48,146 bases of DNA from Deltaproteobacteria bacterium. GTDB taxonomy: Bacteria; Desulfobacterota; Desulfobacteria; Desulfobacterales; ETH-SRB1. Below are positions 19,160 through 37,516 of this stretch, in pieces. How positions within the stretch are numbered: the stretch's first letter is position 1; each line of letters starts with the position of its first letter. The stretch spans positions 1-48,146 of the forward strand of contig JAUWFS010000002.1 in assembly GCA_030606805.1 (NCBI GenBank), written 5' to 3'. A program made the translations under genes and the position numbers. Below the pieces are notes generated by a model. That model was not told the DNA's origin. It did no database searches and saw only the letters and a list, made by a program, of their open reading frames with translations.

Positions 19160-20607
19160 TCCTCATCCCCCGGAGCTGGCGGCCTACTGGAACCTATCTG
19201 CTCTTGCATCTCTTCAAGTGTAAGAGGGCTTGCAATAATATCTGCTTTCTGTAAATTCTCAAAAAGAACCTGTTGAGAAAATGCCCCTTGTTGCCATGCA
19301 CCAACCAAAGCCGTTAACTGTTGGGCATCAAGGCCCGCAGGCATAAAATCACGGTTTAACTCAACCGACCATTTGCCTGGCTGTCCGGCCCACTCACAAA
19401 ACATATTAAGTGCCTTTGTCAAACCGATTGATATTGTCTGAGCGATTGCAGATAAAACAGACGATTCCCCGGCACGGTGGATTTGTGCAACTTGAGCCGT
19501 TTCGGCGTCTTTCTTTTCGGCGGTTAGAAGACGCGCGCCTAAAATAGCCATCTCTTGTTTGTATTCCTGAAGAGCTTCTTTTATTGCATTGAGCCCGGTT
19601 CCTGTAAATTCAAGAAACGAAGCCCTTGCCTGCGGGTCTGGAAATGTCCATGCTGACTGTGATCCAATATACAACTTGTCAGCTTTATCCTCCGGTGAAT
19701 AACCGGAAACAACCGCAGTCGGTAATCCCGTGAAGTGTAACCCGTGTGCGTAATCCGCACCCGTCCGATAATGTGCAAGATTCAAGTCCACCAAATCAAT
19801 CAAGGGCGGTTCATCAACATCCGGCGTAGTATCATCAACTCCGATGAAATAAAATGGGATATATGCCAATGGCTTTCCATTCATAAGCGGGAAGAGATCA
19901 GACCCGACTTGCTGTTGCTCTTTACTGTCATCATCAATCCTAAATATTCTAACCCGATAAACAAAGCTCTCATCTTCATTCACAATATCTTTGTCAACTA
20001 TACGCTTTACAAGATTAAGCACCCGATAACGTACTTCTGTTTTATGCTCAAATTCATTATCCGGTTTTAATGTAGCATTTTCTCGTAATACCACCATTGA
20101 CAAGGCCGTTTCATTCCCTATACGCGTGGTTTTCCAGTTGATGATTGACTCCGCCTGATACTTTTGCATCGTTGGCCGGATTTTGGAAGCCTCTGCATCG
20201 GCTTGTGTCATGCCTTCTGTGGATTGAGAAGGAAAGTCAACTAACACACCTATACGCCCAGTTGTTAGTATCTCAATAGCTGTTTGTTGTGCAAATATTT
20301 GGAAATCAATCCCGGACATAGTGACATCTTCAAGCATCGGTTCAATCGATTTAGGGATATCCACCACGGGAGGCTTGCGGAATATAAGACCTGAGAGCGC
20401 AGAAATGGTGCGCCAATAAGCATTGAAAAAGGAAGCTCTCAACCGATAGGCGTTATATGACTCGTCATCTTGGTCTTTAAGTCGGGGAAGGAAAAGCGTC
20501 TTGGCATCATGCACAGCTCGTTGCCCTGCGGCCACCGCTCTACATTTCACCCATTGAGGTTGCATATTTTTGTATAAATTATGTTGAATGTCTACTGTGC
20601 TTGGCAT
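19156..20607 (-). CDS. Portal protein (DUF4055-like)
   Basis: The N-terminus is ...YKNMQPQWVKCRAVAAGQRAVHDAKTLFLPRL....YNAYRLRASFFNAYWRTISALSGLIFRKPP. It lies downstream of terL. I start it at the ATG at 20607, which has an AAAGGAG Shine-Dalgarno, instead of the track start 20634, which has none. Confidence 0.7.
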   Translation of the reverse strand: MPSTVDIQHNLYKNMQPQWVKCRAVAAGQRAVHDAKTLFLPRLKDQDDESYNAYRLRASFFNAYWRTISALSGLIFRKPPVVDIPKSIEPMLEDVTMSGIDFQIFAQQTAIEILTTGRIGVLVDFPSQSTEGMTQADAEASKIRPTMQKYQAESIINWKTTRIGNETALSMVVLRENATLKPDNEFEHKTEVRYRVLNLVKRIVDKDIVNEDESFVYRVRIFRIDDDSKEQQQVGSDLFPLMNGKPLAYIPFYFIGVDDTTPDVDEPPLIDLVDLNLAHYRTGADYAHGLHFTGLPTAVVSGYSPEDKADKLYIGSQSAWTFPDPQARASFLEFTGTGLNAIKEALQEYKQEMAILGARLLTAEKKDAETAQVAQIHRAGESSVLSAIAQTISIGLTKALNMFCEWAGQPGKWSVELNRDFMPAGLDAQQLTALVGAWQQGAFSQQVLFENLQKADIIASPLTLEEMQEQIGSSRPPAPGDED

Positions 20608-21431
20608 GATATATTCTCCTTTCTTTCTTTCCATAGCTTTTTGGCGGCTGTCTTCATTTTTAATCTTGTCTCATCGGTATGCTTTCTGCCTAACCACGGT
20701 TTTCCATGTTTACTATTAGCGACCATTTTTGCAAGGGATTCCGGTGTATGTTTTCTTCCTAATCCAGCACGTCCAATTTTTTCTTTTGCTTCTGCGGTAT
20801 GGTGTTTTCCATACATAGCATGCTTTTTACCTGATTGTGAGGCACTCATCTTTGCACGGGTTTCATCTGAATGGGTTTTTCCTAAAAATGTGGGATGTTC
20901 CCGACGTGATTTATTTAATTTCTCTTGGTGTTCCGGTGTTCTACCCCTCTTGATAGCAGCGACACTTATTTTTACACGTGTTGATTCTGGAAGATGCTTT
21001 CCAAAAAGACGGTGTTTTTCTCCCTTCCCGGCAGCACTCAGATTTGCCCGATGTTCTAAACTTTTAGCTTTCCCGGTCATGGATACACTCATCTTGGCTC
21101 TCGTTTCTTTGGTTCGTATCACACCAAGACAACTATATGCCCTCCCGCAAATATTGTATTCTGATTTTTCATTAATATATATTTGCTCATGTTCTATCAG
21201 ACTTTCCGTACTGCATTGTTCAATGATCGTAGAGAAAAAGCAGGTCGCCCCATATTTATTCCATGCCCTTTGAAGTATTTGGCTATGATGCAATCCAGCT
21301 AATAGTTTTCTTTTGTGCATTTGAAGGCGCTTTCTTAGGTTAATAGACGACCCAACATAACGCTTGCCATTCACCGAATTTACGATTGCATAAATGCCTG
21401 GAGACTGAGGATATGTAGCTATATTTTCCAT
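20592..21431 (-). CDS. GIY-YIG homing endonuclease with NUMOD3 repeats
   Basis: Motifs are PGIYAIVN..GKRYVGSS..RKRLQMH, followed by at least 6 NUMOD3-like repeats (ETRAKMS.S..GK). It is inserted between terL and the portal gene. Confidence 0.85.
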   Translation of the reverse strand: MENIATYPQSPGIYAIVNSVNGKRYVGSSINLRKRLQMHKRKLLAGLHHSQILQRAWNKYGATCFFSTIIEQCSTESLIEHEQIYINEKSEYNICGRAYSCLGVIRTKETRAKMSVSMTGKAKSLEHRANLSAAGKGEKHRLFGKHLPESTRVKISVAAIKRGRTPEHQEKLNKSRREHPTFLGKTHSDETRAKMSASQSGKKHAMYGKHHTAEAKEKIGRAGLGRKHTPESLAKMVANSKHGKPWLGRKHTDETRLKMKTAAKKLWKERKENISCQAQ

Positions 21432-23659: not shown

Positions 23660-23847
23660 TTTGTTCCTCCCTTTTCAGCGTCCTTAAGTGTTTCGGTAAT
23701 TTCTGATATAATTTTTTCAAGATACAAGATTCGTTCCTTCAATTTTTCATTTTCTTTTTCCAGTTCCAACAATTGATTGTGACATGCTATCCATCGATTT
23801 TTTTCTGTTGATTGCGAATGAGTACCATAAGCTTTTAATTCTTCCAT
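23656..23847 (-). CDS. Small coiled-coil protein
   Basis: 63 aa with heptad-like LLELEKENEKLKERILYLEKIISEI and a good Shine-Dalgarno (AAGGAGGAGCAAC-ATG). Confidence 0.3.
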   Translation of the reverse strand: MEELKAYGTHSQSTEKNRWIACHNQLLELEKENEKLKERILYLEKIISEITETLKDAEKGGTK

Positions 23848-23911
23848 GTTGCTCCTCCTTGAATTAGTGTTATATTAATAAGTTATGTCTGTTTTTTTCG
23901 TAAAATGCCCA

Positions 23912-24240
23912 GCTAATTGACAGGTAGAAAAAAATGTATCTTGTATTATATCAATACTTTACTTAAAAAAATGCCAGGTAAAGAGTGCTAATTAGCAGGT
24001 AGAAAAAAATGTATCTTGTATTATATCAATACTTTACTTAAAAAGGACAGGTAAAAAGTATAGGTTGTATTCCCCTTATATTAAATACCCTATATATATA
24101 TATATATTTTATTTTTTATAATAAAGAAAGTAAGGGGCTTACCTGTCCTACCTGTCCTTTATATTAAAATCAGATACTTACACATATCTTACTTGGCCTT
24201 TACCTGGCTTTTACCTGGCCTTTACCTGGCCTTTTACCTA
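23912..24240. repeat. Iteron cluster with an AT-rich core, a putative replication origin
   Basis: There are two 58-bp direct repeats (23912..23969 and 23987..24044, 2 mismatches). CAGGTA occurs 4 times (23921, 23975, 23996, 24048). Across a (TA)8 / A+T-rich core (24091..24120), the inverse TACCTG occurs 5-6 times (24140, 24149, 24201, 24212, 24223 and a degenerate copy at 24235). The last three or four sit in TTTACCTGGCC units with 11-bp phasing. Confidence 0.55.
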
Positions 24241-24259
24241 TTTTTTGTCAATTTTCAAA

Positions 24260-26647
24260 TTATATTGCATCAACTTCTGACCCAAATCTACCTTGTGTAA
24301 ATTTTTTCCAGGGAATTTTAAGCCCAATTTTCTTCTCAAAAAACTTTCTACACGCCCTTTTGTCAGAAAAAACATAAAGACGTTTTTGCTTTTCACCAGA
24401 TATTGTTTTTCTTTTGTCAGGATTTACATCTGAAAATTCAACTAATTTTCTACCAAAAATTGCTGGGACAAGAGGACGTTTTTCTTTAATTACTTTATCA
24501 CAAAAATATATATAATCATTAAAAAGTTTTTCTCTTTGTATCCCTTCTTCGCCACCTAATGTCGAAAAATCACCAAGTAACTGTTCAAACCAAAATTTTT
24601 GAAATGATGTAAAATTATAAACCAATTGATTTAAAAGTCCTTCAGTCTTAGGCGCTTCTCGTAAGTTAAATTTTGTAATATCCAATGCTAATAAATCATA
24701 TAACATTGCAGATATGCCACCTTTTTTATACATTTGTTCATCAATTTTTTTAAAATAATTATGGTTTTGCATTTGAGTATCAGCAACATTTAGAACGAGA
24801 AATCTCCGCTCATATCTTCCTACAGACACAACCCAGTCATTATTTGATGCAATAATACAATTAATGTGGTTGGCCATTTTAATAGCATCTTTACCTTTTA
24901 GTTCAATCAAATGATGCTTTGATGTAATAAGAGATTTAAGAACACCCGCAATTGTTTTGTCCCCTGCAAAAAATGCCTCATCAAGATATAACAAAAGACA
25001 ATTTTTGAGATGCGAATTAAATCGACCGGTTGCTTGTGCCTGTTTTGTAACTAATTGATAATGATGACCAAATATTTCCCCAAAGATTTCAACGAAAACA
25101 CCTTTTCCAACTCCCCTTAACCCCTGCAAAACAATTGCTGTGCCAGGTTTTTCCCCGCCAGGATCTTGAACAATACGTGCCATCCATGCCATTAACCACT
25201 CATAATGAAGTAGGTTATCATTACAAATATTATGGAATAAGTGTTCTTTATATAAAGACCAGTCCCCATTGACGGGTTTATATGTCAAACCACGATATAA
25301 ATTATAAAATCTATCATCATTATTGTTTGGGTCAAAGACAATTCCTTGATATTCACGGCGTTTTGCTGAAGCCAACCAGGCATCTGCAATAGAAATTGTT
25401 TTAGACTGACCTTTTTTTCCATTATAATTCGGATTTGGTATTTTTTTATTGTAATACAATAATTTAAAATCATACAGAGATAAAAATTGAGGGTCTATAT
25501 AACCACTAATATCCACAATTTCGTATAAAATCCGCACTTTATTACCAAGAATTATAACAGCATGTTTTTTATTAAATTCATTAATTAAATCCTCACCGGC
25601 TTCTTCTGTGCCAGACTCATCAATTTTGACAAATTCAGCATTATTAATCATACTAATAATATCTTTATGTTTTCCATCCTTTAATAAATCATTGATATCA
25701 TGTTTGGCAGGTGTATCTTTCGGCCACTTAACGGTTTTAGTTTTTTCCCCAAGAATAATTGAAATTCTATCAAGTGCTTTTTGGCCTTCTTTGTCATTAT
25801 CTAAAAAACATATTATTTGAATATTATCATCGCGATATTTTCGTAAAGATTTGACCTTTTTGGTATAAATTGAACTACCGATTGCCAGACAACAAGCGGA
25901 CGGAAAACATTCCGCACAAGAAAAAGCATTAATAACAGATTCAAAAAGAATAATAATCTTTGCTTGTTTAATATTTTCTCCAATTTGAAAAAAACAACCC
26001 TCTTCGTTTTCTGAACCATATGTAAAAACTTTATCCTTTTTTTCGGTATCTGAATAAGACAAGCCGTCCACAGACAGCATTTGTATTGCCAGAACTTTTT
26101 TATCACCATCAAGTTCACAATACTGGCAGGCCACGGAAGACAACTCTTCCTGGTCTTTTAAATGATGTTTAACAAAACGTATTTTGTTGTTATTGTATGC
26201 TTTTAGAAATAGTTCCTTATTAATACCACGTCTTTTAGCAAGCCTGTAAATAGGATCAAGATTAGTATTTTTGTCATTAAGAATATTTTTCCACCTATCC
26301 TGCTGTGAATAAAGATTTTTTTTGGAAGGAATTTTTTCTTTTTTCTCTTGTGCTGGTTCCGGTTGAAGCTTTAAGGAAGGTTTCGGTTTATCATTAATAC
26401 CAAATTCATCGAATAATTCAGGCAGGGTTTTGTTATAAATCAGCCTATAAAGATCGATAACGTCCCCACCCTTGGGTCTGCAATGGCGGCACCAGAATTT
26501 TTGCTCATCTGTTTTATATACCAGTCTATCTGTGCCGCCGCATAAAGGACATGGTCCACATTCACTATTATCTGTCTCTCTTTTGAGCCCAGGTGCCATG
26601 TCAGGGATTGAAGGTAAAATTGCTTTTAAGGCTTCGATTCCATTCAT
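24260..26647 (-). CDS. Primase / SF3 helicase fusion (zinc finger + Toprim + D5-like P-loop NTPase)
   Basis: 795 aa. It has an N-terminal zinc finger CPLCGG...CRHC, a Toprim-like acidic motif FLDNDKEGQKA, a Walker A VLQGLRGVGKG and a Walker B LLYLDEA. Confidence 0.8.
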   Translation of the reverse strand: MNGIEALKAILPSIPDMAPGLKRETDNSECGPCPLCGGTDRLVYKTDEQKFWCRHCRPKGGDVIDLYRLIYNKTLPELFDEFGINDKPKPSLKLQPEPAQEKKEKIPSKKNLYSQQDRWKNILNDKNTNLDPIYRLAKRRGINKELFLKAYNNNKIRFVKHHLKDQEELSSVACQYCELDGDKKVLAIQMLSVDGLSYSDTEKKDKVFTYGSENEEGCFFQIGENIKQAKIIILFESVINAFSCAECFPSACCLAIGSSIYTKKVKSLRKYRDDNIQIICFLDNDKEGQKALDRISIILGEKTKTVKWPKDTPAKHDINDLLKDGKHKDIISMINNAEFVKIDESGTEEAGEDLINEFNKKHAVIILGNKVRILYEIVDISGYIDPQFLSLYDFKLLYYNKKIPNPNYNGKKGQSKTISIADAWLASAKRREYQGIVFDPNNNDDRFYNLYRGLTYKPVNGDWSLYKEHLFHNICNDNLLHYEWLMAWMARIVQDPGGEKPGTAIVLQGLRGVGKGVFVEIFGEIFGHHYQLVTKQAQATGRFNSHLKNCLLLYLDEAFFAGDKTIAGVLKSLITSKHHLIELKGKDAIKMANHINCIIASNNDWVVSVGRYERRFLVLNVADTQMQNHNYFKKIDEQMYKKGGISAMLYDLLALDITKFNLREAPKTEGLLNQLVYNFTSFQKFWFEQLLGDFSTLGGEEGIQREKLFNDYIYFCDKVIKEKRPLVPAIFGRKLVEFSDVNPDKRKTISGEKQKRLYVFSDKRACRKFFEKKIGLKIPWKKFTQGRFGSEVDAI

Positions 26648-26901
26648 GACTTCACTCCTTCTAATATATATTGCAGTTTTTCTTTTTGCCCCATTATTAA
26701 TATTTCTTCATTAAGATCAATTTTTTCCTTTCCAAAATTTTCTAAACCCATCCATATTACATCGCCTTCTTTGTCGGCCAAAATCATAAGCCTTTCGTCG
26801 GTATCAGTTTTTTTTGTATCTCCGTTTTTATGAAACATAATCCCTTTTTTTATAAGAATTTGATATTCTTTAAAGGGGTCCTGACAGGGTTTGATTCTCA
26901 T
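26644..26901 (-). CDS. Hypothetical protein (85 aa), translationally coupled to the primase
   Basis: It has a good Shine-Dalgarno (AAAGGAGAUUAUU-AUG) and an ATGA overlap with the primase start. I recognised no motif. Confidence 0.35.
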   Translation of the reverse strand: MRIKPCQDPFKEYQILIKKGIMFHKNGDTKKTDTDERLMILADKEGDVIWMGLENFGKEKIDLNEEILIMGQKEKLQYILEGVKS

Positions 26902-26942
26902 AATAATCTCCTTTCTATTTATAAATCATCTTAAAATAATAA

Positions 26943-27053
26943 CAGGGTATATAAGAGGAAGGTCATAGCTCCGCCGCCATATCCGGGAAATATGGTCTTA
27001 TATACCCTGTTTTGATTTTAAAATATTTTTGTTTTTGAGTTCTATGACAACTC
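26943..27053 (-). ncRNA. Structured leader RNA, copy A (kissing-loop leader family)
   Basis: On the minus strand, HP1 is GAGUU[GUCAUAG]AACUC (27053..27037). A 27-nt A/U linker follows. The compound hairpin (27009..26943) has a 14-bp basal stem CAGGGUAUAUAAGA/UCUUAUAUACCCUG that encloses CCAUAU-UUCCCGG-AUAUGG and GGAG[CUAUGAC]CUUC. The two bracketed loops are exact complements. Confidence 0.6.
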
Positions 27054-27103
27054 ATAGGATTTGATAAAAACTACCTTTCACACTTTCCATATTATATCCA
27101 ACT

Positions 27104-27571
27104 CTACCTGTCAAGATTATTCACATAATCATCATAATAGCGCCTCAATATCAAATATGTAACCTTTTCAGCCGATTGCCTGTCCCACATCGGCCATATA
27201 TGGATATTCTGTTTAATCGAAAATGAGATCAAACTTCTGAACACAGCCTTGCTTGACATGTGTGACCTACTTGGTGGATTTGTAAAAATTCCAGCCAAAG
27301 AGGTTTCAATAACTAAACCAGCATAATTAAATTCACTCATTCGTATAATTTCTTTTTTGAATCGATCTCTATTTTTACCCATACTGGAAAAAAGGTCATT
27401 CTTTTCTTTTCTTTCTATTACGATACGATCAACAAAACCATCCAAACTGTAATCGCCAGTACTTAAACCAATAATTTTTGTTTTAGGCTTTGGGTTAATA
27501 TTTTCAAAAGTATATTTTTTTTGTTCTCTACTATCAATTAGAATACAAAATTCTGGAATATTTGTTGTCAT
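27104..27571 (-). CDS. ERCC4 (XPF/Mus81/Hef-type) nuclease domain protein
   Basis: 155 aa. The motifs IDSREQK...GDYS....IVIERKEKNDLFSS match the ERCC4 nuclease signature GDY...ERK..DL. Confidence 0.6.
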   Translation of the reverse strand: MTTNIPEFCILIDSREQKKYTFENINPKPKTKIIGLSTGDYSLDGFVDRIVIERKEKNDLFSSMGKNRDRFKKEIIRMSEFNYAGLVIETSLAGIFTNPPSRSHMSSKAVFRSLISFSIKQNIHIWPMWDRQSAEKVTYLILRRYYDDYVNNLDR

Positions 27572-28254
27572 AATGATAATGAAGGTTGGAAATGTTTTTC
27601 AAGTTTTGCGCCTTTAGATATATTTTTTACAAGAGGTAATAATTGTAAGTTTTTTAAAGCCCAACAGCGCTGAAAATCAATATCAGTATATGACTTAAAA
27701 TTGTGAACAGAAATTGGAATAATGTGGTCAATACTTAAGTCAGTTTTACCATTGATATAATCTTTCCAAGTATAACCTTTTGGAATGGTTTTTTTAAGAC
27801 GTTTAATTAGTCCATCAATGGTATAAGGAACAAGACTTTCCCAATGCTTACCATTTTTACCTTTACTATTTTTTAATGATTTGCTCATACTGCTACGCAT
27901 AATATTGTTTAATTTATAATTTGGTTTTAGTTTTTGCTTGGCATTCTCTTTTCTACTTATTTCTTTTGTCTTTACCGGATTAGCTTTTCTGCAAGTTTTA
28001 TGATAAGCTTTTATTTTTTCTGAATTAGTTTTATAATAAGCTCTACAATTTTTTTTAAATATTTCTATATTATTTTTATAACGAGCTTTTCTTTTTTCTA
28101 TGCTATGTTTAGTATAAACTTTACTCTCAACAATTCTACATATTTTACACCTACATCGTATTCCAAAACAATTATCTTTTCTTTTATGAAATTCTTTAAA
28201 TGATTTTCTTTTACCACACACATTGCATACCCTTGTCAATTCAATCAATTTCAT
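27568..28254 (-). CDS. HNH homing endonuclease (paralog 1)
   Basis: I start it at the ATG at 28254 (MKLIELTRVCNVCGK..), because the track start at 28311 lies inside the structured leader. It has an N-terminal Cys cluster, Y..xN.EK repeats and the C-terminal HNH motif DLSIDHIIPISVHN...NLQLLPLVKNISKG. The last ~100 aa are about 75% identical to the ORF at 29735..30568. Its stop overlaps the ERCC4 start as ATGA. Confidence 0.75.
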   Translation of the reverse strand: MKLIELTRVCNVCGKRKSFKEFHKRKDNCFGIRCRCKICRIVESKVYTKHSIEKRKARYKNNIEIFKKNCRAYYKTNSEKIKAYHKTCRKANPVKTKEISRKENAKQKLKPNYKLNNIMRSSMSKSLKNSKGKNGKHWESLVPYTIDGLIKRLKKTIPKGYTWKDYINGKTDLSIDHIIPISVHNFKSYTDIDFQRCWALKNLQLLPLVKNISKGAKLEKHFQPSLSL

Positions 28255-28272
28255 ATTACACACCTTAAACGC

Positions 28273-28379
28273 AAAAATAGCCCAAGATAAAGGGTATGCA
28301 GCCCCAACCATATCGAGAATATGGCCTGCCTTGAGCTATTTTTATTTTTAAAGTTTTGATTGAGAACCCTGCATGATTC
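28273..28379 (-). ncRNA. Structured leader RNA, copy B (kissing-loop leader family)
   Basis: On the minus strand, HP1 is GAAUC[AUGCAG]GGUUC (28379..28364). A 20-nt linker follows. The compound hairpin (28343..28273) has a 14-bp basal stem AAAAAUAGCUCAAG/CUUGGGCUAUUUUU that encloses CCAUAU-UCUCG-AUAUGG and GGGG[CUGCAUA]CCCU. AUGCAG and CUGCAU are complementary. Confidence 0.6.
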
Positions 28380-28405
28380 ATTAGATTTGTTTATCTTTCA
28401 TATTT

Positions 28406-28434
28406 TTAATATTCCATTTTACTTTAATTGTCAA
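28406..28434 (-). promoter_or_regulatory. Sigma70-like promoter of HNH cassette B
   Basis: The minus strand reads TTGACA (28434..28429)-17 nt-TATTAA (28411..28406), in the gap after the helicase stop. Confidence 0.5.
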
Positions 28435-28436
28435 CA

Positions 28437-29738
28437 TTAAAGATTATCTAATATTTTATCCTGTATCTTTTGGGATAAAAAGGTGCATCTATTATATACT
28501 TTTGTATTTTTAACAACCTGTCGAATAAATGATTTTTGACCTACCGAAATTAGTATTTTTATTGCTCGTGAGACAGTTGTATAAAGCATAGCTTTATTAT
28601 AATGGAATGTAAAAGCTGAATGAACCGGAAATATTACTACAGGAAAGCCTGACCCTTGTGCCCGATGGGTCGTGATCGAATAGCTGAGTTTTAAATTATG
28701 ATTCCACTTATTAACTAAAACCCTTCGCTTAGGGCTCTCAAATTCCACTATCATTTGTTTATTATTACCCTGTAAATCAATTATTTTTCCTTGATCACCA
28801 TTCAAAACTATTTGTTTGTTCCCGCTGTCAACGTCAATACTGTCATACAAATTCTTACAATTAATTACACAACTGCCAAGTCTAAAACTTATAGTATTGC
28901 CATTATTGTTTTTAATAATATTTTCTTCAGGCTGCTGATTAACAATATTTTGAATTGATTTATTAAGGGCATCACAACTCAATATTGTTTTTGAATTAAC
29001 AGGAGATAGAACCTGCACATCACCATTATTAACTTCATACCCGCGCTTAACCATATTTTCAGTAGCAAGCTTGACAATCGTATCATGTATCACCTGCGGA
29101 ACACTGCATTCAATATGGATGTAATTGCTATTAGTCTTTAAATCGATCTTTCTGTCAGGTGATTCAGGTAACATATACCTTCGATCATCTGTCCGGATAG
29201 CAGTACACATTCTTACAATTTCGCCACTATTACGAAAAATATCTGTAAGTTCCGTGCAGGGTATGCATTTACAAGAGATAAGGTCATATAAAATGTTTCC
29301 GGGGCTTATCGAAGGCAATTGATTTGAGTCTCCGATTAATAATACTTTAGTTTTGTCATGGTCAATTGCTGATAATAAACTTGCGGCTAAATCATTCCCA
29401 ACCATTGACATCTCATCTATTGCCAAAAACGTACAATCTAATTTATTGTCAGCATTATAAGAAAATTGGAATTGTAATTTTCCATTAATTTTGGTTGGGA
29501 TGGGACGAAGCATCCGATGGATGGTACTTGCCGGGTGGCCTGTCATTTTACTGAGGACGCTTGCAGCTTTCCCACTGGGAGAACATAGTAATATTGAATG
29601 TCCTTCTGACTTCATATAATCAACTATGGTTTTTGTGATAGTCGTTTTGCCACAACCAGGACCACCGGTAAGGATAGATAACTTATTTTTTTTAACCATT
29701 TCCAATGCATCAAGCTGTTTGTTAGTGAGTTTTATCAT
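28437..29738 (-). CDS. RecD2/Dda-like SF1B helicase core (C-terminal part of a split RecD2-like gene)
   Basis: 433 aa. It has a Walker A ILTGGPGCGKTT, a Walker B FLAIDEMSMV, the motif LLIGDSNQLPS, and C-terminal ITTHRAQGSGFPVVIF...YTTVSRA (AAA_30 + UvrD_C_2 type). Confidence 0.85.
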   Translation of the reverse strand: MIKLTNKQLDALEMVKKNKLSILTGGPGCGKTTITKTIVDYMKSEGHSILLCSPSGKAASVLSKMTGHPASTIHRMLRPIPTKINGKLQFQFSYNADNKLDCTFLAIDEMSMVGNDLAASLLSAIDHDKTKVLLIGDSNQLPSISPGNILYDLISCKCIPCTELTDIFRNSGEIVRMCTAIRTDDRRYMLPESPDRKIDLKTNSNYIHIECSVPQVIHDTIVKLATENMVKRGYEVNNGDVQVLSPVNSKTILSCDALNKSIQNIVNQQPEENIIKNNNGNTISFRLGSCVINCKNLYDSIDVDSGNKQIVLNGDQGKIIDLQGNNKQMIVEFESPKRRVLVNKWNHNLKLSYSITTHRAQGSGFPVVIFPVHSAFTFHYNKAMLYTTVSRAIKILISVGQKSFIRQVVKNTKVYNRCTFLSQKIQDKILDNL

Positions 29739-30568
29739 AATAGTAGTGAAGGCTGAAAAGGTTTAATTAACTTAGCACCTTTTGACATATTTTTTAAAGC
29801 AGGCAATAGTTGAAGATTTTTTAAAGCCCAACATCGCTGAAAATCTGTGTCGGTATATGATTTGAAGTTATGAACTGCAATCAGAATTTTGTGATCAATT
29901 TGAAGATCGGTTTTACCATTAATATAATCATCCCACGTGTAGCCAGGCGGAAGTGTTTTCTTTAAATGTTTGATTAAATCGTCTAAGGTATAAGAAACAA
30001 GATTTTCCCAATGATAACCATTTTTACTATTTTTTAATGATTTACGAATAGAGTTTGACACAATTTGACTTAATTTAAATTTAGGGTTTATTCTACGCTT
30101 ATTCTTCATGTAAGCAGATATTTTTCCTTTATTTGCTTTATGATAAGCCTTTATCTTTTTCTTGTTTGCTTCACGATAAGCTTCTTGATATACGACTAAT
30201 TTTTCTTTATTGAATTCATAATAATTTTTATTATAAGTAGTTCTTTTTTCTTTATTTATTTCATAATAAGTCTTTTGATATACAACTAATTTTTCTTTGT
30301 TTGTTTTACGATAAATATCCATATAGGTGAATATTTTTTCTTTGTTTGTTTCACGATAAAACTTTTTACGAATAGCTATCTTTTTCTTGTTTGCTTCACG
30401 ATAAACCCTACCATGATCAACTATTTTTTTCTTATTTGATTTTTGATAAGCTTTTATTTTTTCCTTATTTTTTTTGTAGTAAACCTCTTTTTTGGTAGCT
30501 AATTTTTCTTTATTTACTTCTCGATATATCTTTTGATAAGCAGCTTCTTTTTCTTTTGTCCATGACAT
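29735..30568 (-). CDS. HNH homing endonuclease (paralog 2) with ~13 tandem 11-aa Y..xNKEKI repeats
   Basis: 277 aa. The repeats are (A/V)Y(Q/R)KxNKEKIxx. The C-terminus is DLQIDHKILIAVHN...NLQLLPALKNMSKG. Its stop overlaps the helicase start as ATGA. Confidence 0.75.
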   Translation of the reverse strand: MSWTKEKEAAYQKIYREVNKEKLATKKEVYYKKNKEKIKAYQKSNKKKIVDHGRVYREANKKKIAIRKKFYRETNKEKIFTYMDIYRKTNKEKLVVYQKTYYEINKEKRTTYNKNYYEFNKEKLVVYQEAYREANKKKIKAYHKANKGKISAYMKNKRRINPKFKLSQIVSNSIRKSLKNSKNGYHWENLVSYTLDDLIKHLKKTLPPGYTWDDYINGKTDLQIDHKILIAVHNFKSYTDTDFQRCWALKNLQLLPALKNMSKGAKLIKPFQPSLLL

Positions 30569-30591
30569 AATATTAACCCTTTAAAACAACA

Positions 30592-30702
30592 ATAGGATAT
30601 ACCAAAACGGAGGTCGCAGCTCCTAAACCACACGGGGAGTGAAGTTCTTTGATATACCCTATTCTAATTTTAAATTGATTTTTTTGAACTCTGCGACAGT
30701 TC
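30592..30702 (-). ncRNA. Structured leader RNA, copy C (kissing-loop leader family)
   Basis: On the minus strand, HP1 is GAACU[GUCGCAG]AGUUC (30702..30686). A 23-nt A/U linker follows. The compound hairpin (30662..30592) has a 16-bp basal stem AUAGGGUAUAUCAAAG/UUUUGGUAUAUCCUAU that encloses GGAG[CUGCGAC]CUCC. The two bracketed loops are exact complements. Confidence 0.6.
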
Positions 30703-30726
30703 ATAAGAATTTATCCTTTTCATTAT

Positions 30727-30755
30727 TTTATAATCATAATTGAAATATATGTCAA
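30727..30755 (-). promoter_or_regulatory. Sigma70-like promoter of HNH cassette C
   Basis: The minus strand reads TTGACA (30755..30750, overlapping the RecD-N stop)-17 nt-TATAAA (30732..30727). Confidence 0.5.
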
Positions 30756-31645
30756 GATAAAAATTTAACTATACAATTTGCAATTAAGGACTCATCTTTT
30801 GCAAATTGGGTGAGTGTTAAAAAATCGTTATCCTTAACTAAAATTTCTAACTCAACAAGTTGAATAAGTGCATTTAAAACATCAGCCAGCTTTATCCCAT
30901 TTATTAAACCCAAAATGTTTTTAGTAATTACACTTGATTTTAACCAAACATCTCCAGTATCACCCATTATTTGCTTTATAATATATATTATTCCAAACTT
31001 GATGCGCTCTGGATTATTTAATTTTATGCCACATTCTATCGCAATTTTATCCGCTGATAAAAATCCAATTCGGTTTATTTCAGTTAAAATATATGGTGTA
31101 TTTTTAACGATCTCGTAAGCGGTTAGGCCATACAGGGCCACCAAATTTTGGGATAAATTACGAGGCAAACCTTTGACTCTTGAGAACAACCCTTCTAATT
31201 TAATAAGCAATTCTTGCCGCTTGTCGCCTTCTTGTAGCTGTTCACTGATTTCAAGCGCAAGTTTGTATGATATCCCTTTATTTTCATTCGTAATACGCTC
31301 TGGCGCCTTCTTGAGGATCCGAATTGTATGCTTTCCGTATTTCTCAATCAGCATATCAGCCAAAACCGGCCCGATGCCATTAACATGCTTTTCAAGATAA
31401 ATAGCGATTGAATCAGCGGCAACTGGTTCTTTAACGCAATAACTATCAATTTTAAATTGCTTCCCGTATTTTGCGTGTTCCGTCCAATCACCTGACATTT
31501 CGTATGTAATGCCTGCGGCTGGATTGAATAAGTCGCCGGTTGCGATAAATTCAAGGCCGGTTTCAGGTTGGAAAGCAACTATGGTGAAGTCGTTTTCGAG
31601 GGACCGCCATATAACTTTTTTTAGCCTTGCTGTGATGTCAGGCAT
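30752..31645 (-). CDS. RecD2-like helicase N-terminal (helix-hairpin-helix) domain protein
   Basis: 297 aa. The segment ..FIATGDL....G..YEMSGDWTEHAKYGKQFKI......P.....IAIYLEKHVNGIGPVLADMLIEKYGKHTI.IL...PE.. matches the N-terminal OB/HHH region of RecD2 (YrrC-type) helicases. It ends where the AAA_30 domain would normally begin. Confidence 0.6.
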   Translation of the reverse strand: MPDITARLKKVIWRSLENDFTIVAFQPETGLEFIATGDLFNPAAGITYEMSGDWTEHAKYGKQFKIDSYCVKEPVAADSIAIYLEKHVNGIGPVLADMLIEKYGKHTIRILKKAPERITNENKGISYKLALEISEQLQEGDKRQELLIKLEGLFSRVKGLPRNLSQNLVALYGLTAYEIVKNTPYILTEINRIGFLSADKIAIECGIKLNNPERIKFGIIYIIKQIMGDTGDVWLKSSVITKNILGLINGIKLADVLNALIQLVELEILVKDNDFLTLTQFAKDESLIANCIVKFLS

Positions 31646-32134: not shown

Positions 32135-32865
32135 TCTATTTCCTCATCATAATTATCAACCTTAACTATCTTCCCGAATGATTCCCTCACATGCACAAGC
32201 GCCTTTCTATACCCCTTAAATTCAGGGTAGTATTTTTCATCAATCAACATTTTCTCATACAACCCAAGCTGCAACCCATATTTAACAACGTCACAATTTT
32301 TCAAATGTTCAATCGGTTCCAGCATATTCCCGAATGCACCTTCTTCATCAGTGATCTTATTATTAGTTTTCCAATCGATTATAATGCCTTGCTGCGCAGT
32401 ATCATCGGCCATTAATAAATCTATCTGACCGGCAATCTCCATGCTCGGAGAAAAGACAATTTGTTCAGCAGCAACCAATCTGAACCGCTCAAGCAACTTC
32501 GGAAATAATTTATTAACTTGTTTACCCATTCTCAATAATCTATATGTTTTTGGAAGCCAGCCCCAACATCCTTTGCCCGGCCATCGTTCACATAAGGCAT
32601 GTAATTCCGTCCCTTCCATTGATGATAGGGTTGCTTTTTCTTTCCATTGATATTGGATTTCATTAACAGATAAACCTACATACTTCGGTTTTTTCTTATC
32701 AACCATGCGTTGAGCCATTTTGAGAGCGTTAAAGGGGGGAGTGTAACTCTTAATAATAGTAGTTACAGAAGTAAGCAGATCACCCGTTTCTTTAATACGA
32801 TACGAATGATCTGCTTCCGTGAAGATGCAAGTTAAACCGTTATGAGTAGCTGTTTTATCCGGCAT
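32119..32865 (-). CDS. PD-(D/E)XK (RecB/Cas4-like) nuclease
   Basis: 248 aa with motifs GQIDLLM...IIDWKTN...LQLGLYEKM (D...D/ExK...QxxxY). Confidence 0.6.
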   Translation of the reverse strand: MPDKTATHNGLTCIFTEADHSYRIKETGDLLTSVTTIIKSYTPPFNALKMAQRMVDKKKPKYVGLSVNEIQYQWKEKATLSSMEGTELHALCERWPGKGCWGWLPKTYRLLRMGKQVNKLFPKLLERFRLVAAEQIVFSPSMEIAGQIDLLMADDTAQQGIIIDWKTNNKITDEEGAFGNMLEPIEHLKNCDVVKYGLQLGLYEKMLIDEKYYPEFKGYRKALVHVRESFGKIVKVDNYDEEIECLML

Positions 32866-33364
32866 GGTTATTACTATTTCTACGATTATTAGCTTGTACT
32901 TTTTTTGTAGCCCAAATACAATTTTCAGGTGAATAACCTTTTTCGTTGTTAACTCGTTCTAAAGTAAGTTCCGGCTTTGGTTTTAATCCCATATCTTCAA
33001 AAAAGTTTTCAAATTTTAACCAACGGTCACAGACTTTGATTCCCCGACCACCATAATATTTATAACCTGTATTGTTTATATTTAAACAACGTGCTTTCAT
33101 ATTTTGCCAAGTTGAATATTCAGAGGTGTGACACTTTCCATGAGTTGTAAAATTTTTTATAGTTGTTTCTCGGCGTAAACAACCACATGATTTTAAAAGT
33201 CCTCGGCGAAATCCCCTTTTTAATTCTTCTCCTTTTTTTATTAAATATTCACCACAACTACATCTCACCCACCAAAGTGATTGAGATTTTTTATCATTTC
33301 CGGCTTTTGCAATCACAGTTAATCTACCAAATTTTTGTCCTACTAATTGTAATGGTTTACTCAT
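32855..33364 (-). CDS. Conserved phage protein of unknown function (GRLTV ... YGGRGI motifs, Cys cluster)
   Basis: 169 aa. It has GQKFGRLTVI, CSCG...CGC, W.NMKARC and YYGGRGIKVCDRW. This motif set recurs in many phage genomes, but I cannot assign a function. Confidence 0.3.
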   Translation of the reverse strand: MSKPLQLVGQKFGRLTVIAKAGNDKKSQSLWWVRCSCGEYLIKKGEELKRGFRRGLLKSCGCLRRETTIKNFTTHGKCHTSEYSTWQNMKARCLNINNTGYKYYGGRGIKVCDRWLKFENFFEDMGLKPKPELTLERVNNEKGYSPENCIWATKKVQANNRRNSNNHAG

Positions 33365-33379
33365 TTTATATATACTCCT

Positions 33380-33454
33380 AAAAACAAAAAAACTTCCTGG
33401 AATATGGTCGGATACGACTCCGCTCTATCCTTACGGAATAGAGGTTCCAGGAAG
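33380..33454 (-). terminator. Terminator-like compound hairpin inside a 5' leader (leader D)
   Basis: On the minus strand, the 10-bp basal stem CUUCCUGGAA/UUCCAGGAAG (33454..33393) encloses two small hairpins (CUCUAUUCC-GUAA-GGAUAGAG and GUCG-UAUC-CGAC). It is followed by UUUUUUUGUUUUU, then the Shine-Dalgarno AGGAG and the ATG at 33364. Confidence 0.5.
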
Positions 33455-33507
33455 CTTTTCTATCTTGCAAGCTTAATTTATATTTCGTATTGTTTACCAT
33501 GTTTTTT

Positions 33508-33536
33508 TATATATATAAAACAATTTAAAAAGTCAA
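33508..33536 (-). promoter_or_regulatory. Sigma70-like promoter upstream of leader D
   Basis: The minus strand reads TTGACT (33536..33531)-17 nt-TATATA (33513..33508), starting right after the stop of the upstream ORF. Confidence 0.45.
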
Positions 33537-33537
33537 C

Positions 33538-34098
33538 CTAAATCGAGTCAATATCCGGTGTTTGATCTGTGATCTCCATGCCGTCGGCTGAATCGTAGCC
33601 ATCAAAGGCTACCTTCCTTGCTTTCTTTTCAACTGTTGAACCTTTAGGAATATAACCTTCTTCAATATAATTAATAATAGCTTTCTTGCCGATGATTCCA
33701 GTTTTCCACATTTCCTTTGTAATCTTATCATCAGATCCACCAATCAGCCCAACCCGCTTTGCAATCAATATCCGGCGTTTTCTCATACCATCTTTTTCCA
33801 TGCCTGAATATAACGCCACATCGTCAAAAATTGCCCGGCCCTCATATGCTTCGCCCTCATCACCCTGAACCACAACACCGTTCAGCTCCAACACCTTTTG
33901 AATTTCCCAGCGCAGATTTGCAGCGATGCAACTATAATTCGCAAAGTCTTTCTGTTTTGGTTCAGATCCCACGCATTCGCAAAAATACCGGCCCACGGCA
34001 ACTTTGCCCATGCTTTCAGTTTCCTTGATGTCCTCTTCAGATACCTCTTCGTCAATGTCGATATCGTCATCGTCCCAACTTAAAGTTGATTCTACCAT
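33538..34098 (-). CDS. Hypothetical protein, DUF669-like (possible ssDNA-binding accessory protein)
   Basis: 186 aa with a very acidic N-terminus (SWDDDDIDIDEEVSEED). The core ..GRYFCECVGSEPKQ.......L.W.I........GEAYEGRAIFDDVAL.. resembles DUF669 proteins of phage recombination modules. The match is from memory only. Confidence 0.25.
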   Translation of the reverse strand: MVESTLSWDDDDIDIDEEVSEEDIKETESMGKVAVGRYFCECVGSEPKQKDFANYSCIAANLRWEIQKVLELNGVVVQGDEGEAYEGRAIFDDVALYSGMEKDGMRKRRILIAKRVGLIGGSDDKITKEMWKTGIIGKKAIINYIEEGYIPKGSTVEKKARKVAFDGYDSADGMEITDQTPDIDSI

Positions 34099-37379: not shown

Positions 37380-37408
37380 ATATTAAACTATTCAAAAAGG
37401 TCTGTCAA
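37380..37408 (-). promoter_or_regulatory. Sigma70-like early promoter (leftward) in the divergent control region
   Basis: The minus strand reads TTGACA (37408..37403)-17 nt-TAATAT (37385..37380), about 35 nt upstream of the 54-aa ORF. Confidence 0.5.
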
Positions 37409-37516
37409 TAAAATAATTATTTTTATTTTTGTATTGACAGGGTCAAAAATATATTATAGGTATAATTTAAAAGGTTCGATTTTAAACCGTCAACAATTAA
37501 ACAGGAGGAAACAAAA

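Follow-up and report, generated by a model that had tools for sequence, protein, structure and literature searches.

Translating ribosomes are known to suppress an intrinsic terminator when they advance up to or through it, as in the pyrBI attenuator (PMC4824070). In pyrBI, a promoter-proximal leader ORF of about 40 codons spans a stem and its U-tract and ends just ahead of the structural gene, the peptide sequence is irrelevant, and a ribosome that follows closely is expected to keep the hairpin from closing (Roland et al., 1988, cited in PMC4824070). The rep leaders of IncFII, IncI1, and IncI2 plasmids combine leader-peptide coupling with a start-codon stem-loop and a pseudoknot, and include tap-repA of R1, repY-repZ of IncI1/IncB with its activating pseudoknot, and repR-repA of IncI2 with its start-codon stem-loop (PMC8053102). 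In T4-like myoviruses, short promoter/stem-loop (terminator/promoter) composites are described as PeSLs (PMC2839356, PMC4122927).

The stretch of DNA analyzed here, referred to as the window, comprises 48,146 nucleotides of contig JAUWFS010000002.1 (assembly GCA_030606805.1), in which an initial annotation had proposed a leader RNA with a kissing-loop architecture (copy B) in front of an HNH endonuclease gene. Sequence comparison indicates that copy B is a member of a conserved family of sense-strand leader RNAs heading units of the replication module in uncultured tailed phages. Its predicted anatomy runs from a sigma-70-like promoter and a purine-rich motif to an AUG that adjoins the base of hairpin HP1, then through an A-rich linker to a long composite helix (P0 and P1), which carries hairpins P2 and P3 on a three-way junction at its top.

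Comparison with described systems

The leaders resemble pyrBI in having an ORF that runs from the promoter region through a terminator-like stem, and a G+C-containing stem, here branched and atypical, that is followed by a U-tract. They differ from pyrBI in that the putative terminator is a three-way junction whose apical loop kisses the start-codon hairpin; the outer helix also sequesters the downstream Shine-Dalgarno sequence, and there is no sign of nucleotide-sensitive pausing. With the plasmid rep leaders they share the association with replication genes, a short leader ORF that abuts or overlaps the main start and is probably coupled to it, a structured main ribosome-binding site that is predicted to be sequestered, a leader start codon placed in a stem-loop, and a loop-mediated tertiary pairing that is essential to the design. 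However, the loop partner in the plasmids is a separate antisense RNA, whereas both partners of the phage leader lie on one sense RNA; the IncI pseudoknot activates translation, whereas the phage kiss would most simply act as a lock, and the two kinds of leader are unrelated in sequence. A conserved antisense promoter is not in evidence, and the weak plus-strand promoter-like sites (9/12 matches) over copies B and C differ between the two copies.

The leaders are also reminiscent of PeSLs as repeated promoter and stem-loop units that flank variable or mobile ORFs. In a relative (L008a), the flanks are identical to those of copy B while the cores differ, and such conserved edges with exchanged cores suggest recombination between copies; the positions of the leader cassettes also differ between related phages. 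In contrast, a kissing loop or a translated frame is not reported for PeSLs (PMC2839356, PMC4122927), and in the leaders the promoter precedes the structure, the RNA fold itself is strongly selected, and the phages do not belong to the T4-like group. Aptamers of the purine-riboswitch type likewise have a three-way junction, a tertiary contact between loops, and a 5' leader position, but the junction nucleotides of the leaders are variable, the kissing partner lies outside the junction, and Rfam gave no match. A self-cleaving ribozyme or riboswitch aptamer was rejected, as no conserved core or junction nucleotides were found.

Elements of copy B and start of the HNH gene

The promoter, HP1, the linker of 20 nt, the basal stem of 14 bp (P1), and the two inner hairpins that had been described for copy B were all found on the minus strand, at the positions given for them (Table 1), and the CCAUAU/AUAUGG stem recurs in copy A, as claimed. 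In other leader copies, the -10 element is less well conserved than the -35 element (in copy A it reads TATGGA, at 17-nt spacing). The AUG of the upstream frame of copy B overlaps the first base of HP1, and its UAA lies inside UUUAAGG, the Shine-Dalgarno sequence of the HNH gene.

Table 1. Coordinates of the HNH gene, the elements of copy B, and the other leaders of the window.
Feature	Positions	Strand	Description
HNH endonuclease gene	27568..28254	-	228 aa, start ATG 28254
Copy B, -35-like TTGACA	28429..28434	-	part of the conserved AATnTTGACA box; kept in nearly all homologous leaders
Copy B, -10-like TATTAA	28406..28411	-	17 nt after -35
Copy B, purine-rich Shine-Dalgarno-like GAAAGA	28394..28399	-	upstream of the leader AUG; family motif (A/G)UGAAAGG
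Copy B, upstream reading frame	28265..28381	-	38 codons plus UAA, MNHAGFSIKTLKIKIAQGRPYSRYGWGCIPFILGYFCV (stop)
Copy B, HP1	28364..28379	-	GAAUC[AUGCAG]GGUUC; loop 28369-28374, one kissing partner
Copy B, linker	28344..28363	-	20 nt
Copy B, outer helix P0, 5' strand	28347..28354	-	ACUUUAAA; conserved UUUAAA box
Copy B, basal stem P1, 5' strand	28330..28343	-	AAAAAUAGCUCAAG
Copy B, inner hairpin P2	28308..28324	-	CCAUAU-UCUCG-AUAUGG; holds the in-frame ORF-track ATG (28311)
Copy B, inner hairpin P3	28291..28305	-	GGGG[CUGCAUA]CCCU; loop 28295-28301, second kissing partner
Copy B, basal stem P1, 3' strand	28273..28286	-	CUUGGGCUAUUUUU; pairs with 28343-28330
Copy B, GCG UUUAAGGU	28262..28272	-	end of the U-rich tract, 3' strand of P0, AAGG of the HNH gene, UAA of the upstream frame
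Copy A leader	26924..27114	-	TTGACA 27114-27109; 108.6 bits
Copy C leader	30574..30755	-	TTGACA 30755-30750; 120.5 bits
Divergent fourth leader	33372..33551	-	TTGACT-18-TAAATT; 27.8 bits, E 0.025

In the 228-aa HNH protein, a zinc ribbon and repeats rich in K/E/Y accompany the HNH motif, which is C-terminal; endonuclease families were its only PHROGs matches, and Pfam gave no match to a RuvC family. The stop of its gene overlaps the ATG of an ERCC4-type nuclease gene. The ORF-track start at 28311 had been noted to fall inside the structure, and it lies in the 3' strand of P2. The start at 28254 preferred instead is supported by a 96%-identical homologue (P0001) that is called at 228 aa from the equivalent ATG, by an AAGG Shine-Dalgarno sequence 8 nt upstream, and by an N-terminus, M(x)KLIELT..C..C, which is conserved in the homologues directly after their leaders. 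Gene calls are corrected accordingly; long ORFs called in relatives with the leader AUG as their start, for example the 252-aa P0012, probably represent artefacts or fusions of leader and gene. A HEARO or omega-RNA of the IscB type was rejected for this locus; neither Rfam nor the RuvC comparison gave a match, and the leader also stands ahead of genes that were identified by eye as those for primase, DnaB, and SNF2 helicase.

Strand, helices, and kissing loops

G-U pairs had been reported in HP1, the basal stem, and P3; all were borne out, and the outer helix covering the Shine-Dalgarno sequence contains them as well. The minus-strand RNA of copy B folds at -39.9 kcal/mol (z -3.3, with 1 of 200 shuffles as good) and the plus-strand RNA at -25.3 kcal/mol (z -0.9, 37 of 200), so the two strands are unequal once G-U pairs are scored, as the initial annotation had anticipated. 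The gene-sense strand is the more stable one in 16 of 17 homologous leaders. From the G-U pairs and the unequal folding it follows, in line with the earlier proposal, that the conserved entity is a gene-sense RNA rather than a DNA palindrome.

Among 17 aligned leaders, 88.8% of the cells in paired positions can pair, compared with about 51% when the partners are slid, and none of 500 shuffles reaches the observed values. Compensatory changes occur in 27 of 39 pairs, a count inflated by the mutual relatedness of the leaders: three of five in the HP1 stem, where the other two are invariant, 11 of 14 in P1, where 95% of cells are paired, and five of six in P2. P0 is 99% paired and nearly invariant in sequence with little covariation, so that covariation speaks neither for nor against this helix. 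Joined end to end, P0 and P1 make up a nearly perfect duplex of 22-30 bp, interrupted by small internal loops. The junction segments differ among leaders in length and sequence, and the conserved sequence (AUGA, UUUAAA, UUUAAGG) sits outside the junction. Two conserved types of sequence, one CUCCC-like and the other GCGCAAU-like, are seen among the P2 loops, and base pairing provides no explanation for them.

The kissing-loop architecture is real, as the HP1 and P3 loops covary across 20 distinct versions, all of which form 6-7 contiguous Watson-Crick pairs in cis, while only 2 of 380 mismatched loop combinations reach 6 bp. In copy B, CUGCAU of the P3 loop pairs with AUGCAG of the HP1 loop, with a loop-loop duplex of -6.9 kcal/mol. 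Both MAFFT and covariance-model alignments misplace the gap between 6-nt and 7-nt loops, so the column-wise figure for the kiss (76% of cells paired) is too low; a loop-by-loop permutation test was used instead, and 0 of 200,000 permutations reached the observed sum. A naive scan for a hairpin plus its complement was too noisy for use alone. The scaffolds of L008a, L008b, and L014a are nearly identical and their loops have changed in a coordinated fashion. The 20 loop versions, together with the varying frame lengths, argue for many independent events. With three strong copies in the window, about 20 further loci, and the covariation, the leader structure is far beyond chance.

The upstream reading frame and the end of the leader

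The initial annotation had missed the upstream frame that is opened by a conserved AUG, the U-tract after the basal stem together with the pairing of an outer helix (P0) with the main Shine-Dalgarno sequence, and the lack of specificity for HNH genes. The conserved AUG at the foot of HP1 contributes its G as the hairpin's first base and opens a frame of 30-47 codons through the fold, and the frame has at least 30 codons in 22 of 24 leaders; the exceptions, L009 (three codons) and L282 (14 codons), keep the fold and the kiss. Within the first 35 codons of 16 leaders, two contain a stop in frame 0 versus 14 and 13 in the other frames (6 stops in total versus 31 and 28), and shuffled leaders keep frame 0 open with a probability of about 0.09 per leader. 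The frame stays open despite variation in its length (38-47 codons), and the encoded peptides are unrelated between leaders. Its stop lies between -16 and +1 nt of the main AUG in 12 of 18 tabulated leaders, and three more have no upstream-frame stop ahead of the main AUG; the arrangements include an AUGA overlap (L019), UAAAUG (L014b), and in-frame fusions (L010, L012b). The leader RNA thus seems to be not simply non-coding, having a conserved upstream frame inside it.

L034 still has the AUG of this frame although its HP1 lacks the GA/UC pairs, and the HP1-less variants W_D and L288b have the same design of a frame through the structure. In most leaders, an AAGG/GAGG-type motif precedes the leader AUG by 6-12 nt, or by 18 nt in copy A; its distance is often 12 nt, which, like that of copy A, is beyond the optimal spacing. 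L014a has lost the promoter segment and the Shine-Dalgarno-like motif, and its leader AUG follows the stop of the upstream gene by 6 nt, an arrangement that would fit a chain of translational coupling. A mini-ORF still farther upstream, running from (A/G)UGAAAGG to the UGA within AUGA, is in frame in the core family (8 of 10 leaders) and not in more distant leaders; it was taken as inherited sequence and set aside as evidence. Every leader has a U-tract directly 3' of P1, in the form UUUUUGnnUUU(U)AAGG or as U7-9, and the stem is terminator-like because the 3' strand of P1 runs into this tract. The GG of the main Shine-Dalgarno sequence is paired in the minimum-energy fold of 20 of 24 leaders.

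Extent of the family and genomic context

The window contains three strong leader copies (108-127 bits by covariance model) and a divergent one, and about 20 more occur in related uncultured phages; the remaining intergenic gaps of the window contain no further leaders. Copy A (upstream frame 27055-26963, loops GUCAUAG / CUAUGAC) lies in front of an 85-aa ORF (26644-26901) and the primase gene; its frame ends inside the P3 loop, 64 nt ahead of the main AUG, and the main gene has its own AAGGAG further downstream. Copy C (upstream frame 30704-30573, loops GUCGCAG / CUGCGAC) precedes an HNH paralogue (29735-30568) between the two halves of a split RecD2-like helicase. The upstream frame of the fourth leader (33500-33378) comprises 40 codons and stops with the UAG in UUUUUAGGAG; this leader has a three-way junction and a U-tract, with no clear HP1, and precedes an ORF at 32855-33364.

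Elsewhere, leaders precede genes for replication proteins, DnaB, SNF2 helicase, HNH, and T5orf172-like proteins (functions read by eye from motifs), in L014 and L015 the leader stands directly ahead of the primase gene, and the same leader also occurs without any nuclease gene. The leader therefore belongs to replication-module operons in general and is not an HNH accessory. An iteron-containing, AT-rich region at 23840-24270, separate from the leaders, is a better candidate for an origin.

Rfam 15 at gathering scores gave no match in the whole window, and relaxing the threshold to E values up to 5 for 26850-30800 yielded three matches only, to one sRNA and two snoRNA families, all weak, irrelevant, and well under the threshold. 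A megablast search of 26600-31000 against cultured phages found no match, and a distant blastn search with two leaders returned short chance matches alone. The best tblastn identities, 34% for the helicase and 57% for the terminase, were uninformative on the host. In IMG/VR, the C-terminal half of the helicase found no relatives, while the HNH protein found seven loci at 34-39% identity, in none of which the covariance model detected the leader. A contig pattern scan gave no leader by covariance model among the 80 loci listed, and no prophage or host was identified there. A different three-way-junction hairpin was observed upstream of the HNH homologue in L003. No paper describing these leaders was found in the literature, and they appear to constitute an undescribed family of structured RNAs.

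Proposed regulation and alternative explanations

The reading that we favor, at a probability of roughly 0.55, is a translation-gated leader, acting as an attenuator and/or a translational coupler, in which the kissing loop locks the off state. We infer from the arrangement of the elements that the upstream frame would be translated and that transcription would terminate at the stem. In the off state, the fully folded RNA would terminate or stay untranslatable, because P0 would pair the main Shine-Dalgarno sequence and HP1, stabilized by its kiss to P3, would hold the leader AUG. The on state would begin with a ribosome loading at the leader AUG ahead of the transcription of P3, melting HP1 and making the kiss impossible; trailing the polymerase, this ribosome would occupy the 5' strand of P0 and P1, so that the terminator-like helix could not close, and it would finish atop the main ribosome-binding site. 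The downstream gene, here that of the HNH endonuclease, would then be transcribed, and translated by coupling. The kissing loop would thus serve to lock those transcripts that have no ribosome loaded into the off state. Several points count against the translation-gated leader: the short frames of L009 and L282, the frame end of copy A, and the long Shine-Dalgarno spacing, as well as the possibility that, without pausing, a ribosome fails to catch the polymerase within about 120 nt (PMC4824070). A branched three-way-junction terminator is likewise unusual and counts against it.

An elaboration that we hold only tentatively, and consider improbable as it stands, takes the kissing pair as a programmable timer and dosage sensor. 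Termination and silence would ensue unless a pioneer ribosome loads during the approximately 85 nt of polymerase travel to P3, and terminated leaders would pile up as small RNAs whose P3 loops kiss the nascent HP1 loops of the same code in trans. This would be similar to antisense control in plasmids, except that one sense RNA, complementary to itself, would do the work and an antisense gene would not be needed. Related to it, and rather doubtful, is a trans-acting small RNA of about 130 nt, from the promoter to the U-tract, for example one in which the P3 loops of terminated leaders kiss nascent HP1 loops of the same type, giving a dosage-dependent feedback like that of plasmid antisense RNAs. 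A promoter and a terminator-like end do bracket the element, and different loop codes occur within one genome (GUCAUAG, AUGCAG, and GUCGCAG in the window), as expected if specificity in trans matters. However, the partner loop is always present in cis, where it is kinetically favored, L012a and L012b are one base apart, and L014a is without its own promoter. A processing or stability element is unlikely as well, although it would make good use of the nearly perfect P0 and P1 duplexes of 22-30 bp, as an RNase III or other nuclease site or as a protective 5' structure; cleavage would free the Shine-Dalgarno sequence, and the frame would be incidental. RNase III sites of T7 and lambda sit between genes of polycistronic modules, and so do the leaders. 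What a processing element leaves unexplained is a single frame that runs through the fold free of stops and ends at the main ribosome-binding site, and the conserved AUG with its upstream purine-rich motif at the foot of HP1.

The leader could also serve as the operator of a protein, encoded by the phage or the host, that recognizes the three-way junction or the conserved P2 loop and acts, for instance, in translational repression, in antitermination, or by modifying RNA polymerase. HK022 put and lambda nut are promoter-proximal sites present in multiple copies per genome, a distribution that the leaders share, and a bound protein might account for the two P2-loop types that base pairing does not; yet junction sequences are not conserved, no candidate regulator co-occurs, and the open frame is not accounted for, which leaves such an operator quite improbable. 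Elements acting as DNA (cruciforms, origins of replication, sites of recombination or homing, or a piece of a group I intron with the HNH gene inside) are very unlikely. The copies do lie in the replication module, copy C and its HNH gene split the helicase gene, and leader cores have apparently been exchanged between conserved flanks, but the G-U pairs and the folding asymmetry favor one RNA strand, no intron family matches even at E values up to 5, the origin is better placed in the iteron region, and the two halves of the helicase carry stop and start codons of their own and form separate genes in every relative, whether or not a leader lies between them. The group I intron was rejected specifically, there being no Intron_gpI match and the halves being separate ORFs in relatives with different inserts. 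Least credible is programmed -1 frameshifting or recoding, with U_UUA_AAA in the linker as the slippery site and the kissing-loop fold 5-8 nt downstream as the stimulator. An invariant UUUAAA box does stand a few nucleotides ahead of a strong pseudoknotted structure and falls in the U_UUA_AAA register in several leaders; in many others it is read UUU_AAA, and the frame of the main gene is offset from that of the leader by 0, +1, or +2, with a difference even between the near-identical W_B and L015a. This variable frame implies that there is no conserved fusion product, which largely refutes frameshifting, and the candidate was rejected.

Implications for the phage family

The comparative support for the leaders, 20 orthogonal kissing codes together with compensatory changes in the helices, is unusually clean. 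If the translation-gated leader is the correct reading, it would represent a new architecture of leader-peptide attenuation, in which a start-codon hairpin is kiss-locked to the apex of a branched terminator, and its loops would provide a natural set of orthogonal RNA-RNA codes for synthetic biology. If the dosage sensor also holds, each replication operon would have its own orthogonal, copy-number-dependent negative feedback. The genes behind the leader, which it may control, are those that start phage DNA replication, plus homing-endonuclease cassettes that have landed behind it, with nuclease genes inserting precisely between the leader and the gene it would serve.

Copy B and the other leader RNAs of the window

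Every element that the initial annotation had assigned to leader RNA copy B (28273–28434) was found on the minus strand where it had been placed, namely a promoter, a first hairpin (HP1), a linker, and a basal stem (P1) enclosing two hairpins (P2 and P3). RNAfold recovered this architecture and added an outer helix, P0, in which ACUUUAAA (28354–28347) pairs with UUUAAGGU (28269–28262), the Shine-Dalgarno sequence of the HNH gene. The proposed comparison of strands gave folding energies of −39.9 kcal/mol (z −3.3) for the sense RNA versus −25.3 kcal/mol (z −0.9) for its complement, and thus favours a gene-sense RNA. The preference for the ATG at 28254 over 28311 as the HNH start also stood, as an AAGG lies at 28266–28263, a 96%-identical homologue (P0001) is called at 228 aa, the conserved N-terminus M(x)KLIELT..C..C directly follows the leader in three other phage loci (L008, L009, and L012), and 28311 sits within P2.

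The minus strand of the window contains four TTGACA-N16-18-TAnnnW sites, three of which head the same architecture (copies A, B, and C) and score 108–127 bits with a covariance model based on 11 leaders. The HNH paralogue behind copy C shares 59% identity with the copy B protein over the paralogue's C-terminal 192 aa. Within it, a 45-nt (15-aa) unit of the type KEKxxxYxKxYRExN recurs about seven times in tandem (30137–30529); such units are fewer in copy B's HNH gene and probably represent a repeated DNA-binding module. A fourth, divergent element (33372–33551, minus) was weakly matched by the model (33372–33509, 27.8 bits) and has a promoter-like TTGACT-18-TAAATT, a three-way junction plus U-tract, and a 40-codon frame through the fold that stops at the UAG of UUUUUAGGAG; its P3 loop, GUCGUA, has just a 5-nt complement (UACGA), near the start of the frame. 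No tRNA or Rfam family match was found in the window.

Features of the leader RNAs in the window (minus strand)
Feature	Position	Sequence or loops (HP1 / P3)	Downstream
Copy A promoter box	27114	GUCAUAG / CUAUGAC	85-aa ORF, then primase
Copy B promoter box	28434	AUGCAG / CUGCAU	HNH gene
Copy C promoter box	30755	GUCGCAG / CUGCGAC	HNH paralogue
Copy B promoter	28434–28429, 17 nt, 28411–28406	TTGACA, TATTAA
Copy B, between TATTAA and leader AUG		contains AAAUAUGAAAGAUAAACAAAUCUA
Copy B leader AUG	28381–28379	AUG
Copy B HP1	28379–28364	GAAUC[AUGCAG]GGUUC
Copy B linker	after HP1	A-rich, 20 nt
Copy B basal stem, 14 bp	28343–28330 with 28286–28273	AAAAAUAGCUCAAG / CUUGGGCUAUUUUU
Copy B P2 (within basal stem)	28324–28308	CCAUAU-UCUCG-AUAUGG
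Copy B P3 (within basal stem)	28305–28291	GGGG[CUGCAUA]CCCU
Upstream frame, copy A	27055–26963
Upstream frame, copy B	28381–28265
Upstream frame, copy C	30704–30573
Upstream frame, fourth element	33500–33378

Comparative support for the fold and the kissing loops

In the 17 leaders aligned to the model, standard pairs filled 88.8% of cells, versus 39–54% when partners were slid by 1–3 columns; both sides had changed in 27 of 39 pairs, and none of 500 shuffles matched any observed measure. P1 showed compensatory pairs at 11 of 14 positions and 95% pairing. Of the two strands, the sense strand gave the more stable fold in 16 of the 17, copy A being the exception. P0 is beyond the reach of the covariation test because its sequence is almost invariant.

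Column-wise counting underestimates the kissing interaction between the HP1 and P3 loops because loop lengths differ, and the loops were therefore compared directly. In each of the 20 distinct loop pairs, the two partners join by 6–7 contiguous Watson-Crick pairs, while only 2 of 380 mismatched combinations reach six pairs (the majority 2–3) and none of 200,000 partner permutations came near the observed total. Near-identical scaffolds carry coordinated loop changes, as in the two leaders of one locus (GUGACAG/CUGUCAC in L008a versus AUGGCAG/CUGCCAC in L008b) or in copy B versus the L010 leader (AUGCGG/CCGCAU). The predicted energies of the loop-loop duplexes in the window range from −6.9 to −10.5 kcal/mol.

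The P2 apical loops of all leaders (28314–28318, 26995–27001, and 30643–30647 in the window) fall into two conserved types, (A)CUCCC(A/C)G-like and GCGCAAU-like. This conservation is unexplained by base pairing; the loops could make a tertiary contact, mimic an anti-Shine-Dalgarno sequence, or be bound by a protein. A different three-way-junction hairpin, AAAAUAGGGGA...UCCCCUAUUUU, occurs in an unrelated phage of higher GC content (L003:3865–3925), upstream of the gene for a distantly homologous HNH protein (38% identity). This hairpin, undetected by the covariance model, has a P3 loop, UCUCUA, that complements UAGAGA just downstream, and it may be a chance occurrence.

A conserved reading frame through the structure

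A conserved AUG at the 5′ foot of HP1 (motif AUCUUAUGA) had been overlooked in the initial annotation, and in L034 it is retained though the GA/UC pairs of HP1 are gone. A purine-rich AAGG/GAGG motif precedes it by 6–12 nt (18 nt in copy A); L014a lacks this motif and has also lost the promoter segment. The leader frame opens at this AUG, spans 30–47 codons, and crosses HP1, the linker, P0, P1, P2, P3, and the U-tract. Within the first 35 codons of 16 leaders, it is interrupted in two, versus 14 and 13 for the other frames (6, 31, and 28 stops in total), and it would be open in shuffled sequences with a probability of about 0.09. It reaches at least 30 codons in 22 of 24 leaders, its openness being kept despite length differences. 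The frame ends at the UAA of a conserved UUUAAGG or at most 16 nt from the AUG of the downstream main gene, which its stop overlaps in L019 (AUGA) and abuts in L014b (UAAAUG); in L010 and L012b the two reading frames are fused. The leader peptides are unrelated, and close leaders differ almost wholly by non-synonymous changes. The fourth element and L288b are without a clear HP1, yet keep the design of a frame through the structure.

A further mini-ORF lies upstream of the leader frame in eight of ten core-family leaders (28382–28402 and 27056–27082 in the window; L008, L010, L012, L014, and L015) and is absent from distant leaders. It starts at the (A/G)UG of (A/G)UGAAAGG, and its stop is either the UGA of the conserved AUGA, in a stop-start overlap with the leader frame, or a UAA directly before.

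In every leader a U-tract (UUUUUGnnUUU, or U7-9) follows the 3′ strand of the basal stem, with an A-tract on the 5′ side; at the sequence level this is an intrinsic-terminator signature, though the stem is branched. The GG of the downstream Shine-Dalgarno sequence is paired in the minimum-energy fold of 20 of 24 leaders.

Relatives and genomic context

No cultured phage proved to be closely related to the window. HNH-protein homologues gave access to contigs from related uncultured phages, all of which contain leaders of the same architecture and have their genes arranged as PD-(D/E)XK nuclease, RecD2-like helicase N-part, helicase C-part, ERCC4-type nuclease, and primase. More distant leaders were collected by pattern scans of IMG/VR and metagenome contigs, followed by a covariance-model filter. 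The primase gene stands immediately behind the leader in L014 and L015, whereas an HNH gene intervenes in L010 and an 85-aa ORF takes that place in the window. In distant phages, genes behind the leader, assigned by eye from motifs and without a profile-library search, resemble replisome-organiser/DnaD-like then DnaB-like genes, primase, SNF2-type helicase then methylase, HNH, and T5orf172-like genes. The element is therefore regarded as a leader of replication-module operons, and nuclease genes are frequent lodgers right behind it, not its defining partner.

The coding sequence of the RecD2-like helicase is split in two (28437–29738 and 30752–31645, minus), with leader C and an HNH gene between; the N-part (OB_YrrC plus HHH_RecD2) matches profile positions 10–304 and the C-part (ATPase) positions 329–736. 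The split recurs in all related phages, where what lies between the halves varies (52+109 aa, 79 aa, HNH, or 52+103 aa). Behind the primase gene, a non-coding stretch of about 400 nt (23840–24270, minus) contains iterons (GGCCAGGTAAA, four copies; GGACAGGTA, two copies), an (AT)n run, and a pair of 58-nt direct repeats (23912–23969 and 23987–24044, 97% identical), and is likely a replication origin. A third free-standing nuclease gene, GIY-YIG/NUMOD3 (20592–21431, minus), lies without a leader between the large terminase and portal genes and has a counterpart at the same place in L014 and L015. Divergent, back-to-back promoter-like sites (37380–37470; minus strand, TTGACA-17-TAATAT at 37408; plus strand, TTGACA at 37434) separate the early genes of the minus strand from a 198-aa ORF of the plus strand and look like a genetic-switch region. 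ORF 13211–14305, with six tandem 78-nt (26-aa) units at 13354–13974, encodes a protein with internal repeats and a presumably structural role. Paralogous stretches 42.3 kb apart (4919–5812 and 47209–48129, 77–82% identical, in ORFs 4738–6900 and 47058–48116) could be a gene duplication or indicate that the window wraps round a circularly permuted genome.

Proposed mechanism and alternatives

The simplest model using every conserved part is that the leaders are translation-gated, by attenuation and/or coupling, to which we assign a probability of about 0.55. In the off state, the main Shine-Dalgarno sequence would be hidden in P0, the leader AUG would be held in HP1, stabilised by the kiss to P3, and the terminator-like stem plus U-tract would form. 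In the on state, a ribosome starting at the leader AUG before P3 exists would melt HP1, trail the polymerase, keep the 5′ strand of P0/P1 single-stranded, and terminate on the main ribosome-binding site, resulting in read-through and coupled initiation. Terminator suppression by ribosomes translating up to or through it is known, e.g., from the pyrBI attenuator (PMC4824070), and coupling through a leader peptide, together with a stem-loop at the start codon and pairing mediated by a loop, has a precedent in plasmid rep leaders (PMC8053102). Translation gating is weakened by the short frames of L009 and L282, by the copy A frame stopping in the P3 loop, and by the distance from the Shine-Dalgarno-like motif to the leader AUG, which is long in many copies.

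A role in RNase III processing or RNA stability would account for the long duplex, though it leaves the reading frame unexplained. The differing loop codes within one genome would fit a trans-acting small RNA, although the loop partner is always in cis, and the presence of two conserved types of P2 loop (CUCCC-like and GCGCAAU-like) would be consistent with a protein operator. Frameshifting was ruled out, as the main gene occurs in all three registers relative to the leader frame, and a group I intron or other DNA-level element by the strand asymmetry, the absence of an intron match, and the helicase halves being separate genes in all relatives.

Mobility and novelty

Cassette positions vary among related phages. 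At the site of copy B, L008 has an HNH gene 96% identical to the one in the window, yet its leader has another core, set between the same flanks (...AAUGUUGACA and UUUUUGCGUUUAAGGUGUGUAAUAUG...). The leaders therefore seem to behave as exchangeable modules, in which the loops of each core again match one another; this recalls the PeSL cassettes known from T4-like phages (PMC4122927). Each of the three cassette ORFs of the window overlaps the following gene by an ATGA. The element was undescribed in the full-text literature searched and matched no Rfam family. We class it as probable leader-peptide-dependent attenuation or coupling, a known principle, in a new architecture, a kissing lock from a start-codon hairpin to the apex of a branched terminator-like stem.
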